Source: Chloroflexota bacterium
GTDB lineage: Bacteria > Chloroflexota > Chloroflexia > Chloroflexales > Herpetosiphonaceae
DNA: 64,000 bases
Direction of reading: 5' to 3'
Assembly: GCA_020161265.1 (NCBI GenBank)
Contig: JAIUOC010000003.1
Span: 107,024 to 171,023, forward strand
Shown here: positions 33,257 through 39,536 of the stretch, in pieces
Position numbering within the stretch: the stretch's first letter is position 1
How the letters are laid out: every line of letters starts with the position of its first letter
Position numbers and translations under genes: made by a program
The notes under the pieces: generated by a model
Told to the model about the DNA's origin: nothing
Databases searched by the model: none
Seen by the model: the letters and a program-made list of their open reading frames with translations, nothing else

Positions 33257-33424
33257 TTACTCGCCCCAGTCTTCTTCGACTTCGGGTGCTAATTCCAACA
33301 CAACTGGGTTCAGGCTGACAACTTCGAGTTCTGCGCCGCAATCAGGGCATGGCACAATCTCGCCATCCAAAATATCGGCTGCCAACGCGATCGTTCCTTC
33401 ACATTCTGGGCATTGTGCGCTCAT
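33257..33424 (-). CDS. lysW: Amino-group carrier protein LysW (55 aa)
   Basis: [10 protein letters not shown]...[13 protein letters not shown]...EEDWGE: Zn-ribbon CxxC..CxxC and C-terminal EDWGE tail diagnostic of LysW; the longer 33257..33514 ORF runs into the repeat. Confidence 0.92.
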
Positions 33425-33427
33425 TGT

Positions 33428-33759
33428 TTGTAATCCTTTATTAGTTAGGGGTCGGGGGCTAGGGGCTGGGGATCGGTATCCCGTCCTGTGCCAACCACCT
33501 GTTGCCAAACCCACTAATTCTTAACAAACCTTACCTTCGTGATCTTCGCGTCCTTCGCGGTTTCAAGGGTAGGGGTCGGGGGCTAGGGGCTGGGGATCGG
33601 TATCCCGTGCAGTGCCACCTGCCTATGTTCAACCCGTTACATTCCGATAGCCAAAAGCCTTATAGCCTTACTCTCTGCGCCTCTGCGTTAAAACTTCCTG
33701 ACCCCTGATCTCTGACCCCTGAACCCTCGCCCCTTCGTGTCCTTCGTGCTCTTCGTGGA
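33428..33759. repeat. Mosaic palindromic intergenic repeat element, copy D, with internal ~45-bp direct duplication
   Basis: TAGGGGTCGGGGGCTAGGGGCTGGGGATCGGTATCCCGT present twice (about 33437-33485 and 33570-33615); also CTTCGTGATCTTCGCG, CCTTATAGCC, CTCTGCGCCTCTGCGTTAAA, CTGACCCCTGA, CTTCGTGCTCTTCGTGGATC. Confidence 0.85.
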
Positions 33760-35283: not shown

Positions 35284-36549
35284 TTAGGCGAAAACTGCTT
35301 GCTCAGTGCTGTCGAGCACATTGCGCGGGTGGGTGATGTAGCCAGTTATGGCGGTGGCGGCGGCAACTTCAGGCGAGGCCAAGTAGATATTGGCTCCTGG
35401 GCTGCCCATTCGTCCGCGGAAGTTGCGATTGCCAGTGAAAACGCAGACTTCATCGGGAGCCAACACGCCCATATGGCGACCAATGCATGCGCCACAGCCA
35501 GGCGTGCCGATGGTTGCCCCAGCAGCCAACAACGTCGCCAATGTGCCATCACTGGCGGCGCGATGTAAACTATCGCTCGAAGCAGGCACGACAATCATGC
35601 GCACATTGGGAGCCAAACGTCGCCCTTTGAGGATGCTAGCGGCAGCGGCCATATCTTCGTAGTGGCCGTTGGTGCAGGTGCCAAGATACACCACATCAAC
35701 CGCGACCCGTCCGACATCAGCCAAATCGACTACATTATCGACATAATGTGGCAGGCTAACCTGGGGTTCGAGCGTGCTCAAATCGCATTCGACAACGCGG
35801 CTGTAGCTGGCATCAGCCTCAACCCGCAACCATTCTGGCACGGGATGCTCAGCGCCCAAGCCAGTTGGGGCAACGATTCCGGCCTTGGCTCCAACTTCAA
35901 TCGATAAGGTTGCTAAGGTCATACGTTCGCGCCACGAAAGAAAATCAACCCCGTGCCACTCGACACTTTGGTAGGTTGCACCATCGGCGCGGAGCGTGCG
36001 AGCCGCCCATAAACCAAAATCCTTGACGCTCACGCCTGGTTGAAAATTGCCAACCGCATTGACCCGCACGGTCTCAGGCACGCGAAACCAAGTTTGGCCT
36101 GTCGCGAGGGCAAGGGCAATGTCGGTCGTGCCCATGCCTGAGCCAAAGGCTGCGGCTGCACCATAACCAGTGCTATGCGAATCGCTGCCCACCACCAACA
36201 TGCCAGGTTGCACCAGCCCTTCTTCAATCAAGACCGGGTGCGAGATGCCGCGACCAACATCAAACAAATGGCTGATGCCTTGTTGGGCGACCCAACGCCG
36301 CACTTGTTGTTGCTGTTCGGCTTGGCGCACGGTCGCGGCTGGGGCAACGTGGTCGATCACCACTGCAACTTTGTCGCGATCCCACACGCGTTCAGCGCCC
36401 AATTCGTTGTGCAAGGTTTCGATAATGCTGGGCGAGAGGCTATCGTGCATCATCACCAAATCGACGTTGACCACTACCATATCGCCTGCTTGCACGTCGC
36501 TGCGACCGGAAGCATGCCCCAAAATTTGCTCGGCAAATGTCTGACCCAT
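35284..36549 (-). CDS. Homoaconitase / 3-isopropylmalate dehydratase large subunit (aconitase family)
   Basis: Aconitase-family Fe-S ligands (GTCTNG; PGCGACIG); MGQTFAEQIL N-terminus. Confidence 0.88.
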   Translation of the reverse strand: MGQTFAEQILGHASGRSDVQAGDMVVVNVDLVMMHDSLSPSIIETLHNELGAERVWDRDKVAVVIDHVAPAATVRQAEQQQQVRRWVAQQGISHLFDVGRGISHPVLIEEGLVQPGMLVVGSDSHSTGYGAAAAFGSGMGTTDIALALATGQTWFRVPETVRVNAVGNFQPGVSVKDFGLWAARTLRADGATYQSVEWHGVDFLSWRERMTLATLSIEVGAKAGIVAPTGLGAEHPVPEWLRVEADASYSRVVECDLSTLEPQVSLPHYVDNVVDLADVGRVAVDVVYLGTCTNGHYEDMAAAASILKGRRLAPNVRMIVVPASSDSLHRAASDGTLATLLAAGATIGTPGCGACIGRHMGVLAPDEVCVFTGNRNFRGRMGSPGANIYLASPEVAAATAITGYITHPRNVLDSTEQAVFA

Positions 36550-36645
36550 TGCGGAAACTCCCAAAAATAGCTGAAAAATGGCACATCAAGGTATAGCAAG
36601 CTAGGGCATTGAAATAGCAATTTCAATTGCCAGCTTGAAAAATCG

Positions 36646-37779
36646 TTAGGCTGCTTGGAGGGTGCTTGAGCGCAGGAGCGCATCCACCTCGTCGAGCGTC
36701 AACGGCTGATCATCGGCAGCAGCTTTGAGTTGAGCTGCAATGGCGATAATCGTGGTGTCGCTCAGATCCAAACCTAGGGCGTTGGCGCGGCTTTGCAAGG
36801 CATGGCGACCAGTTAGGCGATGCCCAATCAGCACATTGCGTTCGCGCCCAAAAGCATTGGGATCGATCGCTTCGTAGGTGCTGGGATTGGCCAAAACAGC
36901 CTTGGTATGCAGGCCAGCCTTGTGAGCAAAGGCGGTTTCGCTGGTGATACAGGCATTGAACGGCACTTGAATGCCCAACATTGCCGCAACTGTGTGATCA
37001 AGTTGGGCCAACATTGGCAAGGCATAGCCTGCAACACTTTCAGGTTCGGAGAGGTAGAGGCGAGCAATTAAGCCGCTGAGCGCGGCGATGCCGTTGCGTT
37101 CGCCAATTCCAAGAATGGTTGTATCGATGTGGGTTGCGCCTGCTTCGAGCGCTGCATAGGCATTGGCAATTGCACAGCCGCCATCGTTGTGGCCATGAAA
37201 TTCAATGTCGCAGCGAACTGCATTGCGGACTGCACCAACCACACGTTCAACATCGCGTGGCGTGGCAATGCCCACGGTGTCGGCGATGCCAACCCGCTGC
37301 ACGCCAAGCAAATCGACAGCTTGGTAGACGCGCAACAAATCGGGCAGTGGGGTGCGGAATGAATCTTCGCAGGAGAACCGAACTTCGATCTGACGTTCTT
37401 GGAGGAAACGCACAACTGGGCCAACTTCTGCCAAAATCGCTTCAATTGAGCGACCATGGCTCCATTGGCGCAGATAGGGTGATGTGCCAAAGAGGATATT
37501 TACGCCAGCCACGCCACATTCAGCAGCGAGCCGCACGTCATCAAGGTTACAACGGGTGTGGGTCAGCAGCTTGGTGTTGCCGAGCGGCAAGGCTGCGATG
37601 CTGCGCAAATCTGCCGCACTTTGCGGCGAGGCGCAGGGAGAGGTCATTTCGATGTATTCAACGCCAAATTGAACTAGCAAATTGGCGATGGCGAGGCGAT
37701 CTTCACTGCTGAAATGAGCATTGGCCCATTGTTCGCCTTCGCGTAATGTCGTATCAACAATTGCAAAATGCCGTGTCAT
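36646..37779 (-). CDS. Homocitrate synthase / 2-isopropylmalate synthase family (DRE-TIM metallolyase); cluster context favours homocitrate synthase
   Basis: MTRHFAIVDTTLREGEQ and HxH metal motif (EFHGHND); first gene of the lysine cluster. Confidence 0.88.
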   Translation of the reverse strand: MTRHFAIVDTTLREGEQWANAHFSSEDRLAIANLLVQFGVEYIEMTSPCASPQSAADLRSIAALPLGNTKLLTHTRCNLDDVRLAAECGVAGVNILFGTSPYLRQWSHGRSIEAILAEVGPVVRFLQERQIEVRFSCEDSFRTPLPDLLRVYQAVDLLGVQRVGIADTVGIATPRDVERVVGAVRNAVRCDIEFHGHNDGGCAIANAYAALEAGATHIDTTILGIGERNGIAALSGLIARLYLSEPESVAGYALPMLAQLDHTVAAMLGIQVPFNACITSETAFAHKAGLHTKAVLANPSTYEAIDPNAFGRERNVLIGHRLTGRHALQSRANALGLDLSDTTIIAIAAQLKAAADDQPLTLDEVDALLRSSTLQAA

Positions 37780-37911
37780 GAAAGCACAATCCTTCCGCAA
37801 GAACATCCGGTGAACAATTCAGGGCGAACAGCCGCAGGGCGGTGGATATGGCTGATGCGTTTAAGTTGCTTGAGTATGGCCATGGAAAAATCCTTTCAAA
37901 CCGACGTTGGA

Positions 37912-37942
37912 TACAAAAAAACTCGCCGTTTGGTGCGGCGAG
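37912..37942 (-). terminator. Intrinsic terminator (putative attenuator) in the 5' leader of the homocitrate-synthase gene
   Basis: Minus strand: CTCGCCGCACCAAACGGCGAG followed by TTTTTTT; about 135 nt upstream of the start codon. Confidence 0.6.
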
Positions 37943-37974
37943 CCTTGGTGTTTATTGAGCGCGTGAAGTGTTGT

Positions 37975-38061
37975 TTAGACGCGACGCAATAACCCAGACT
38001 CGCTGCCTGGCTTCTTTGCGCTACGTTTTTTCGAGTTCAGGTACAATTGTTGACTGAACAT
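37975..38061 (-). CDS. Candidate leader peptide (28 aa, MFSQQLYLNSKKRSAKKPGSESGLLRRV) with two Lys-Lys pairs, preceding the attenuator
   Basis: Minus-strand ORF with GGAG about 10 nt upstream; AAA AAA and AAG AAG lysine codon pairs; stop ~33 nt before terminator hairpin. Confidence 0.35.
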   Translation of the reverse strand: MFSQQLYLNSKKRSAKKPGSESGLLRRV

Positions 38062-38100
38062 AGTAACAAACTCCACAAACCATCAAAAGTTCTGTCGCGA

Positions 38101-38129
38101 AGCATAGCAGGCAGGTTTGAGTTTGTCAA
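38101..38129 (-). promoter_or_regulatory. Sigma70-like promoter for the lysine-cluster leader
   Basis: Minus strand TTGACA - 17 nt - TATGCT. Confidence 0.5.
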
Positions 38130-38140
38130 GTGACGATTTT

Positions 38141-38345
38141 TGGGCATCGGGGATCGGTTGTTGGGGGTCGGGGGTCAGGGATTTTTAAACGCCAAGGACA
38201 TGAAGGAGAATAAGGCTATAGGCTTTTGGCTATCGGAAATTGGTTGAAATTATCAAAAGCCTATAGCCTATAGCCAAATCTTCCGATCCCCGCCCCCCAA
38301 CAACCGATCCCTAGCCCCCGACCCCTAGCCCCTTATGTTCTATGC
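38141..38345. repeat. Mosaic palindromic intergenic repeat element, copy E (near-perfect long inverted repeat)
   Basis: CATCGGGGATCGGTTGTTGGGGGTCGGGGGTCAGGG ... CCGATCCCCGCCCCCCAACAACCGATCCCTAGCCCCCGACCCC; inner GGCTATAGGCTTTTGGCTATCGG ... CCTATAGCCTATAGCC; terminal TTATGTTCTATGCTCTATGTTCT encodes the last codons and stop of the downstream GT gene. Confidence 0.9.
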
Positions 38346-39469
38346 TCTATGTTCTGGATAATTGCCTCGCGCATAGCCGAACCAACCGCTTCCCAGCGAT
38401 AACGTGCCGCAATTTCGACACTGCGTGCGCCAAAACGCCGACAGCGCTCAGGATCGCCGACCAATTTGATCAAGACGGTCGCCAGCTGATCAACCGTGCC
38501 TGGCTCAACCAAATAGCCATTGCGATCGTGCTCGATAAAATCGGGCATGGCTCCAAGGTTGGTTGAAACCACAGGCAGCCAATAATTCATGGCCTCAATC
38601 GTGACGATGCCAAATGGCTCAAGTTTGGTGGGCATACAAAAGACTGCGGCGCGTTGATAATACTGCGGCAATTGCTCAACCGGAATCCGCCCGATGACCT
38701 CAACTCCTGGCTGGTTGGTTTGTGGGTTTGCGCCGATGATCGTCAGGGTAGCGTTGGGATAAACCGCCCGTACTTGGGCGAAGGCTTGCAGCAATTCAGG
38801 GCCGCCTTTACGCTCCCAATCTATCCCAACATAGACAATATTTTGGCTGGCATAGCGGGCTGGATCAGGCGTTTCGCTGATGACCGGAGCATTGCTACCA
38901 GCGTAAACACAACGTACTTTGGCTGGGTCACAATGGTAATCTTCGACCAATGAACGTGAAACATGATTGGAACGTGTAAAGACTAAATTGGCATTTTGAT
39001 AAATAGTTGGCTCTAACTTCATCCATTCGGGGTGATAGAGCGAGGCCGGATTAAAGCCTGGATATTGACGATTTGCCAGCAAGGTATGGTCGGTATAGAC
39101 AAAATGGGGGATATTTGGCACGCTAGCATCAAATAATGATTGCATCTGAAAACTGAATAGATAGTCGTCATCGCGCAGTAAATCGGCAACTAAATGCTTG
39201 ACAGCACGAAAAATATAGCTGGTGATCAAAAAGGCATCTTTGGGGCCACGCCGCCGCATCGCCAAATCGCCAGCATATTGGCGTAATGTCCACCAGCCGT
39301 TTAATGCAACCAGTGCAGGCTTGCGCCGAATGATGGGAATTAAATCGATCTCACGGAGTTCATTTTCAGGGAATTGAGCACGCAGCGCTTCGGCGGTTCG
39401 CACATTCGCCAACGGCCAGCGCCCCTTACGAATAAAAGCAATTTTGGGAGCCACACGCACCTCCAGCAC
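38333..39469 (-). CDS. GT4-family glycosyltransferase
   Basis: GT-B C-terminal domain with E-x7-E (EPFGIVTIEAM); 378 aa. Confidence 0.8.
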   Translation of the reverse strand: MLEVRVAPKIAFIRKGRWPLANVRTAEALRAQFPENELREIDLIPIIRRKPALVALNGWWTLRQYAGDLAMRRRGPKDAFLITSYIFRAVKHLVADLLRDDDYLFSFQMQSLFDASVPNIPHFVYTDHTLLANRQYPGFNPASLYHPEWMKLEPTIYQNANLVFTRSNHVSRSLVEDYHCDPAKVRCVYAGSNAPVISETPDPARYASQNIVYVGIDWERKGGPELLQAFAQVRAVYPNATLTIIGANPQTNQPGVEVIGRIPVEQLPQYYQRAAVFCMPTKLEPFGIVTIEAMNYWLPVVSTNLGAMPDFIEHDRNGYLVEPGTVDQLATVLIKLVGDPERCRRFGARSVEIAARYRWEAVGSAMREAIIQNIEHRT

Positions 39470-39536
39470 AGATCACGACCGACAGTAACTCATGGCTACT
39501 GTCGGTCTGAATTGAGGATTTTATTGGAAAAAGCAG

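Follow-up and report, generated by a model that had tools for sequence, protein, structure and literature searches.

A probable lysine-responsive leader-peptide attenuator, with a conserved second small reading frame, upstream of the LysW-type lysine cluster of a Herpetosiphonaceae bacterium

The enterobacterial leader-peptide attenuators (trpL, hisL, leuL, thrL, pheL and ilvL) share a four-segment logic with the pairings 1:2 (anti-antiterminator), 2:3 (antiterminator) and 3:4 (terminator). In proteobacteria lysine control is exerted by the L-box or by LysR-type regulators. For the lysine cluster of Thermus thermophilus a leader-peptide attenuator has reportedly been described, and its Lys codons are said to be required there. 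To our knowledge it is only in Thermus that lysine leader-peptide attenuation has been shown experimentally, and a literature search turned up no comparative study of Lys leaders. Here we analyse the leader of the lysine cluster in a stretch of 64,000 nucleotides (nt) from a Chloroflexota bacterium of the family Herpetosiphonaceae (contig JAIUOC010000003.1, positions 107,024 to 171,023). This whole stretch is called the window below, and positions are counted from its first letter. The leader lies on the minus strand, upstream of the homocitrate synthase gene (hcs; its product HCS), and is in our judgement probably a ribosome-mediated (leader-peptide) transcription attenuator, which ties the expression of the lysine cluster to charged tRNA-Lys.

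The features of the locus are compiled in Table 1. An earlier reading of the window from its sequence only had proposed a promoter of the TTGACA-17-TATGCT type, followed by an open reading frame (ORF) of 28 codons with two Lys-Lys pairs (here ORF1) and, behind the stop codon of the latter, by a strong terminator 135 nt upstream of the homocitrate synthase gene. All three are present as described. The promoter agrees with the consensus at 10 of 12 positions, and no promoter-like site in the 10.7-kb cluster is better; it ends 39 nt upstream of the ORF1 start codon, and transcription is predicted to start near position 38094. The terminator is the strongest terminator-like site in the cluster, and no other strong promoter or terminator was found anywhere in these 10.7 kb. 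The stop codon of ORF1 precedes the terminator stem by 28-32 nt, and 135 nt separate the end of the U-tract from the hcs start codon. ORF1 encodes four Lys residues. With a lysine content of 1.7%, as found in the nine neighbouring proteins, 27 codons would contain at least four Lys with a probability of about 1e-3; of KK pairs two are observed where 0.007 are expected. On both strands of the window ORF1 is the sole short ORF (up to 45 amino acids, ATG start) in which a double Lys cluster is followed by a T-run. It matches no protein family.

For comparison the T. thermophilus HCS was reconstructed from a PDB match, and a locus of a Thermus sp. was retrieved whose HCS is 94% identical to it. 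This locus comprises a TTGACA promoter, a leader of 14 codons (MLAREKKLGRRGLG-stop), which fits the leader characterised in T. thermophilus, and a terminator whose end lies about 14-25 nt upstream of hcs. The sequence-only reading had already likened the window leader to the attenuation described for the Thermus lysine cluster, and at the level of architecture the likeness holds. Both leaders are situated directly upstream of hcs in a LysW-type cluster and share a promoter of the TTGACA type, an intrinsic terminator and, in between, a short ORF in which Lys codons stand in tandem; in both the 5' strand of the antiterminator falls within the 3' part of the ORF, and a Gly codon lies 6-7 codons past the Lys pair. 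In contrast to the 14 codons and the single Lys pair of the Thermus leader, ORF1 of the window has 28 codons and two pairs. In Thermus and in most of the other leaders compiled here the stop follows right after that Gly codon, whereas in the window S-G is kept six codons past the second pair and the stop comes 11 codons past it. In the window the Shine-Dalgarno (SD) sequence of ORF1 pairs with the segment behind the stop codon, whereas in the Thermus locus the 5' untranslated region (UTR) pairs with the end of the ORF. Finally, the 135-nt spacer of the window holds a second small ORF (ORF2), which the Thermus locus with its short spacer does not have. The two leaders come from different phyla, and no similarity between them was detected by a covariance model.

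The four-segment logic of the enterobacterial attenuators is the same as that of the window leader. In both cases the regulatory codons lie in or just before segment 1, and their distance to the U-tract, about 95 nt in the window, is similar to that in trp. Sequestration of the leader SD by a downstream segment has also been described for trp. The window leader differs from these attenuators in that it would sense lysine, occurs in Chloroflexota, shows no sequence relationship or Rfam match and has an extra ORF before the first gene. The lysine riboswitch (RF00168) occupies the same position and is presumed to have the same effect, a lysine-dependent early stop of transcription ahead of the lysine biosynthesis genes. 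However, it reads free lysine by an aptamer of 180 nt, whereas the window leader is without an aptamer and would sense the charging of tRNA-Lys via translation.

To assess conservation, hcs upstream regions were gathered from 80 genomes and eight metagenomic relatives. The whole module (promoter, SD of the GGAG type, ORF1 of 26-29 codons and terminator) was found in 11 distinct leaders of the Herpetosiphonaceae type, among which that of Herpetosiphon aurantiacus DSM 785 is almost the same as the window leader. The module is kept where the identity of HCS falls to about 70%. The consensus of ORF1 reads M-x5-Q-L-(N-S)-K-K-R-x-A-K-K-x3-G-S-G-x-L-R-x-x-stop. Its four Lys positions are invariant as amino acids in the 11 leaders, while AAA and AAG swap, a pattern that marks selection on the decoded codon. 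Conservation of the leader ORF and its Lys codons, which the sequence-only reading had left to a comparison of related genomes, is thus borne out even among relatives with an HCS about 70% identical, all of which keep the four Lys; the comparison indicates that the Lys codons of ORF1 are under selection. Of 18 related loci, 15 have a TTGACA-N17/18-TAnnnT promoter, which precedes ORF1 by 23-39 nt. At the place of the ORF1 SD most of the 18 related leaders, including all of the Herpetosiphonaceae, have GGAG, GGGAG or AGGAG; the loci L013/L014, L091, L011 and L006/L007 either have no clear GGAG or carry a different purine-rich motif.

A covariance model (R1) was built from ten Herpetosiphonaceae leaders. 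It has a single match in the window, at 37916-38061 of the minus strand (E 1.6e-26), and recovers the leader of locus L082, which was not among its seeds, at E 1e-19. Other Chloroflexota and metagenome-assembled genomes (MAGs) labelled Fimbriimonadales and Blastocatellia are matched at E 1e-5 to 0.02. For L082-L084, a metagenomic relative, a loss of the attenuator was considered and rejected, since ORF1 was found 585 nt upstream of hcs, beyond a repeat insertion. This insertion of about 330 nt (-500 to -105 from hcs) is composed of heptamer repeats and an element resembling miniature inverted-repeat transposable elements (MITE-like) and parts the terminator from ORF2. The MITE-like element recurs further upstream.

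The unconstrained fold of the window leader consists of the helices P0, P1 and P2 and the terminator. P0, the pairing of the ORF1 SD with the segment behind the stop codon, was found in nine of nine Herpetosiphonaceae leaders tested, with differing sequences (GUGGAGU:ACUUCAC, GAGAGUUU:AAACUCUC, GGGAGUU:AACUCCC; shuffle fractions of 0.007-0.14 per sequence), and may restrict ORF1 to one round of translation. When a ribosome footprint was placed on the second Lys pair and the 3' arm of the terminator was withheld, GCGAGUCU paired with AGGCUCGC, which overlaps the 5' arm of the terminator. This helix is extended by GUU:AAC, AUUG:CAAU and CGCGU:ACGCG, and its loop (37978-37965) contains the ORF1 stop codon. 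The mutually exclusive antiterminator, without which the sequence-only reading would have given up attenuation, was thus found by folding, and it is conserved and covarying.

In an alignment of ten relatives the terminator is paired to 94.8% and shows C-G to U-A covariation. The antiterminator is paired to 84.5%, in contrast to 30-43% when the partner strand is slid by 1-3 columns. For P1/P2 a value of 74.6% was obtained from the MAFFT alignment of the 10 relatives, which is an underestimate because MAFFT misaligns P2 (CCAGGC against CAGACC). In three Herpetosiphon species column 123, in the 5' arm of the terminator, is changed from C to U, and together with it column 62 (antiterminator) and column 141 (3' arm of the terminator) are both changed from G to A. 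Such a three-way covariation is expected of a two-state switch.

We also folded the leader with a ribosome footprint of 27 nt forced unpaired at each codon in turn, a procedure which models equilibrium at 37 C. In the window the terminator probability was about 0.9-1.0 without a ribosome, with one at codons 1-12 and with one from codon 18 to the stop. Only with the A site at codons 14-17 did it fall to about 0-0.5, and it did so for all four footprint 3' edges (A+9, A+11, A+13 and A+15); with the tightest footprint the minimum lay exactly at K16 and K17. A dip at the second Lys pair is also seen in H. llansteffanensis, H. aurantiacus, L003, L089, L081, L085, L088 and L090, and a broader one across both Lys clusters in L091 and L005. 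Leaders with a shuffled ORF equalled the observed dip in 3 of 60 trials for the window and in none of 60 for H. aurantiacus. A measure of how far the terminator 5' arm is occupied in transcripts truncated ahead of the 3' arm proved noisy, with the 5' arm paired in almost every state, and was not used.

These results can be combined in the following mechanism. Transcription would begin about 33 nt upstream of ORF1, and a ribosome would load at the ORF1 SD and trail the polymerase. With ample Lys-tRNA the ribosome would pass the Lys codons and reach the stop, P1/P2 and P0 would form behind or around it or once it has left, the terminator would fold and transcription would stop 135 nt before the homocitrate synthase gene. 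When Lys-tRNA is scarce, the ribosome would stall with its A site at codons 16-17 and cover the 5' arms of P1 and P2. The stall would free GCGAGUCU...UUGCGUCGCGU to pair with ACGCG...AGGCUCGC in the 5' arm of the terminator; with the terminator blocked, the polymerase would read into ORF2 and the nine lysine genes.

Table 1. Features of the lysine leader and the adjoining cluster. All features lie on the minus strand of the window.
Feature	Position	Sequence or details	Evidence or remark
Promoter	38101-38129	-35 TTGACA 38129-38124; 17-nt spacer; -10 TATGCT 38106-38101; extended TGcTATGCT 38109-38101	
P0, 5' strand	38065-38076	GUGGAGUUUGUU; includes ORF1 SD	minimum-free-energy fold
ORF1 SD	38071-38074	GGAG, 9 nt before ATG	
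ORF1 (leader peptide)	37975-38061	MFSQQLYLNSKKRSAKKPGSESGLLRRV; 28 codons; ATG 38061; TAA 37977-37975	
First Lys pair	38026-38031	codons 11-12 (AAA AAA)	always Lys in relatives
Second Lys pair, proposed sensing site	38011-38016	codons 16-17 (AAG AAG)	conservation and masked folding
Anti-antiterminator hairpin P1/P2	37979-38026		unconstrained fold
P1		ACGU.GCGCAA (38026-38016) with UUGCGU.GCGU (37989-37979)	
P2		CCAGGC (38010-38005) with GUCUGG (37999-37994)	
Antiterminator, 5' strand	37979-38003	GCGAGUCU 38003-37996, GUU, AUUG, CGCGU 37983-37979	
P0, 3' strand	37963-37975	AACAACACUUCAC; anti-SD-like; begins at last base of stop codon	minimum-free-energy fold
Antiterminator, 3' strand	37938-37964	ACGCG 37964-37960, CAAU, AAC, AGGCUCGC 37945-37938	
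Intrinsic terminator	37915-37946	AAGGCUCGCCG 37946-37936, loop CACCAAA, CGGCGAGUUUU 37928-37918; 11 pairs; U7 37921-37915	
ORF2 SD-like motif	37891-37896	AAAGGA, 7 nt before ATG	
ORF2	37776-37883	MAILKQLKRISHIHRPAAVRPELFTGCSCGRIVLS; 35 amino acids	stop TGA overlaps hcs ATG (ATGA)
ORF2 conserved core	37838-37806	P-A-A-V-R-P-E-L-F-T-G	
hcs (homocitrate synthase)	36646-37779	first gene of the regulated cluster	NCBIfam match
Lysine cluster	37779 down to 29028	after homocitrate synthase: hacA, hacB, homoisocitrate dehydrogenase gene, lysW, lysX, lysY, lysZ, lysJ	

Several points weigh against an attenuator. The analysis itself yields the parts of the leader, their conservation, the selection on the Lys codons, helices that covary and exclude one another, and a predicted switch that depends on the position of the ribosome; we infer the point at which transcription starts, the stall itself, the kinetic coupling and the in vivo response to lysine. 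The covariation within the Herpetosiphonaceae amounts to few independent events, and that of the three-way column to essentially one. The fold of the whole leader is no more stable than that of shuffled sequence (z = -0.36), a value that is uninformative with regard to a switch. Model R1 finds no leader of Thermus, Oceanithermus or Deinococcus at E<=1. In the masked folding the depth of the dip varies with the assumed 5' end of the window leader (0.38-0.45 versus about 0), and relatives with very strong terminators give no equilibrium dip. A stall at the first Lys pair keeps the terminator at 0.8-0.9 in the window, which would be counter-productive under severe starvation; in L005, L081 and L002 a stall at this pair does not keep the terminator high. 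As a positive control the masking protocol was tried on the leaders of Thermus and Oceanithermus. It had no usable read-out on the Thermus leader, for which the automatic choice of terminator pairs went wrong and in which region 2 is also open to pairing with the 5' UTR, and it is thus not validated on the proven Thermus case.

The same switch might be driven by a ligand, a tRNA or a protein that binds the leader RNA, with ORF1 being incidental or assisting. In other lineages a lysine riboswitch is indeed found at exactly the same position upstream of the homocitrate synthase gene (9 of 20 other hcs loci), and parts of the leader RNA (GUCUGG, GCAAAGAAGC) are strongly conserved independently of the peptide. 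However, the leader of about 180 nt is mostly taken up by ORF1, and a sensor of RNA only would need neither the SD, the start codon and the length of the ORF nor the synonymously varying Lys codons, all of which are conserved. Moreover, the folding predicts the switch specifically when a ribosome occupies the Lys codons. That the leader is not a recognisable L-box riboswitch had already been noticed from the sequence, and no Rfam family, the L-box (RF00168) and the T-box included, is matched at E<=10 in 36500-39500. As there is no Rfam match in any of the 20 related leader loci scanned either, identity with an L-box or a T-box was rejected, and we regard an RNA-only sensor as very unlikely.

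Much the same has to be said of a reading in which ORF1 is a stand-alone gene for a small protein, served by the promoter and the terminator on either side of it, while a separate, unrecognised promoter within the 135-nt spacer drives the lysine cluster, perhaps along with ORF2, so that no attenuation takes place. It would agree with the strength of the terminator, with the SD that ORF2 possesses, and with the conservation of the ORF1 peptide beyond its Lys residues (Q-L-N-S ahead of the first pair, G-S-G behind the second), yet ORF1 has no protein family match and no promoter-like site is found between the terminator and the homocitrate synthase gene. The Thermus terminator ends so close to hcs that there is no room for a promoter. 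In addition, the order ORF1-terminator-(ORF2)-hcs is kept across the Chloroflexia-type loci, and a conserved, covarying antiterminator would serve no purpose next to an independent gene, which makes this explanation highly improbable. Classical attenuators respond to translation inhibition in general, and in the masked folding some of the terminator is also lost when codons 13-15 (Arg, Ser, Ala) are in the A site. The leader could therefore sense the general status of translation, any slowed leading ribosome or uncoupling triggering the switch and the Lys codons adding little specificity. This we consider unlikely, since the Lys pairs are the only invariant residues common to the distant members of the family and the element precedes lysine genes in every case examined. 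The reading as a lysine-specific attenuator is thus preferred.

Many other hcs loci have Lys-pair leaders upstream. Their peptides include ...QLNSKKSVSKKGRTIASG, ...SKQDKRVKKPAYRSG in Oscillochloris, ...KKSKKEKKPD... in Anaerolineae, ...ELKKSKKIQRTPHR in Thermanaerothrix and ...FASKKSTSPPG in Deinococcus murrayi; the leader of Oceanithermus is MKYREAKKLYAGGAG-stop. The last Lys pair is followed, 6-7 codons on, by a Gly codon and the stop in Thermus, Oceanithermus, Deinococcus and the nearer Chloroflexia-type relatives. The Herpetosiphonaceae have retained S-G and lost this ancestral stop, their ORF1 being five codons longer, and it is due to this loss that their stop codon lies in the loop of the antiterminator and not in its 5' strand. 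Typical distant leaders finish with ...GUCUGG-UAG, and CCAGA(C) is present in their terminators, which otherwise vary. Past this GUCUGG/CCAGA core the complementarity extends over 4.0 contiguous pairs within a locus compared with 2.57 between loci (none of 5000 permutations). As model R1 misses the leaders of the Deinococcota, a common origin of the Herpetosiphonaceae and Thermus leaders is plausible, not demonstrated; the miss is compatible with such an origin because the elements are too short and their G+C contents too different.

The loci in which the lysine riboswitch takes the place of the leader belong to Limnocylindria, Acidimicrobiia and Terriglobia (L012, L017, L019, L022, L025, L027, L029, L030 and L036); L012 also carries group II intron domains. 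Some of the leader loci deviate from the usual arrangement. In L076 (141-420) and in L063 two Lys-pair leaders with terminators are arranged in tandem before the same hcs. In L054, from a Pirellulaceae MAG, a Lys-pair leader (MPQFNKSFSKKSKKRRGLPLA) with a terminator lies about -460 from hcs, before a lysW gene that is itself upstream of hcs. L008, from a Chloroflexia MAG, has no Lys leader ORF, and a T-box-like GGGTGGTACCACG was noticed about -70 from hcs; no Rfam family reaches its gathering score there. Two Thermus metagenome contigs (L094/L095, 2334-2754) encode a HicA/HicB toxin-antitoxin pair between hcs and the homoaconitase gene.

The 135-nt spacer between the terminator and hcs is occupied by ORF2. 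This small ORF was found in 21 of the 97 loci scanned, and all 21 also carry ORF1. An upstream ORF (uORF) preceded by an SD is present in 22 of the 97 loci, namely the 21 with ORF2 and L076 with an unrelated uORF, and in no L-box locus. ORF2 is therefore not a chance ORF. Neither the Anaerolineae leaders with a short spacer that were inspected nor the Thermus locus contain it. Most of 18 loci have (G)AAAGGA or AGGAG upstream of ORF2, with weaker motifs in L013, L014 and L082. Third codon positions vary freely (CCT/CCA/CCG/CCC, GTT/GTC, CGC/CGA/CGT, GAA/GAG, TTG/CTG/CTA/CTT) within the core P-x-A-V-R-P-E-L-Y/F-x-G, whose amino acids are kept. The ORF2 region shows no consensus RNA structure (-2.46 kcal/mol) and no conserved structure that would sequester an SD. 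Because of this, and of the third-position variation with the amino acids being kept, an RNA element was rejected as an explanation, and the pattern of substitutions indicates that ORF2 is translated and its peptide is under purifying selection. There is no match to it in Pfam or NCBIfam, and only six unnamed database proteins resemble it in a profile search.

ORF2 invariably crosses the hcs SD and stops at -4 to +41 nt relative to the start of hcs. Translational coupling, an inhibitory uORF and a regulatory arrest peptide are possibilities for its role. As a short ORF just upstream of the regulated gene and overlapping it, with a conserved core and variable ends, it is similar to TnaC, SpeFL and the fungal arginine attenuator peptide; there is no sequence similarity to these, and the analogy is a lead only. 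Tentatively, and we hold this to be rather doubtful, the leader might be a two-stage device in which the ORF1 attenuator is followed by ORF2 as a regulatory uORF whose conserved nascent peptide acts on the ribosome. ORF2 would then possibly contain a programmed pause or arrest, perhaps dependent on a metabolite such as free lysine, and a ribosome stalled there would stand 28-38 nt before the hcs start codon and either block initiation at the SD and ATG, which ORF2 reads across, or couple it. If true, ORF2 would be the founding case of a previously undescribed family of arrest or uORF peptides governing amino-acid biosynthesis in Chloroflexota. In any case it is a concrete and cheap target for the discovery of a regulatory peptide.

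A complete cluster for lysine synthesis by the alpha-aminoadipate/LysW route, identified with NCBIfam models, follows directly downstream of the leader. It includes both the large and the small subunit of homoaconitase. Most of its genes score above the curated NCBIfam cut-offs; homocitrate synthase, homoisocitrate dehydrogenase and lysJ score just below. The start of hcs at 37779 (377 amino acids) is fixed by a homologue 98% identical over its full length, and the window HCS is 98% identical to that of H. aurantiacus DSM 785 and of H. llansteffanensis, which places the window in the genus Herpetosiphon. The lysW ORF (33257-33514, minus strand) is listed with 85 amino acids and a GTG start, and the LysW model matches it only from residue 31. 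A start near 33424 is probable, which would leave about 330 nt untranslated after the homoisocitrate dehydrogenase gene.

On the other side of the leader, the region 38134-38355 between a glycosyltransferase gene (38333-39469, minus strand) and the lys promoter contains tandem repeats of heptamers and 14-mers (TCGGGGG in 4.9 copies, AGCCTAT, CCGACCCCTAGCCC in two copies and TATGTTC in three). They form nested inverted repeats with arms of 27 nt that are 93% identical and an inner perfect palindrome of 16 nt. Similar heptamer arrays flank the leaders of the relatives.

The data support the view that the window leader is of the same kind as the Thermus attenuator, in a different phylum and with structural differences. 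The logic of lysine attenuation by a leader peptide is conserved in Chloroflexia, and Lys-pair leaders related to it are also present in other Chloroflexota and in MAGs assigned to other phyla. Across lineages, this type of control and the lysine riboswitch replace each other at one and the same genomic position. The family of Lys leaders goes unannotated because it is absent from Rfam, and the leaders collected here could serve directly as the seed alignment of a 'Lys leader' RNA family. What this study adds is the breadth of this uncurated family and the conserved ORF2; with H. aurantiacus DSM 785 a cultivated organism is at hand that offers a clean and testable case.

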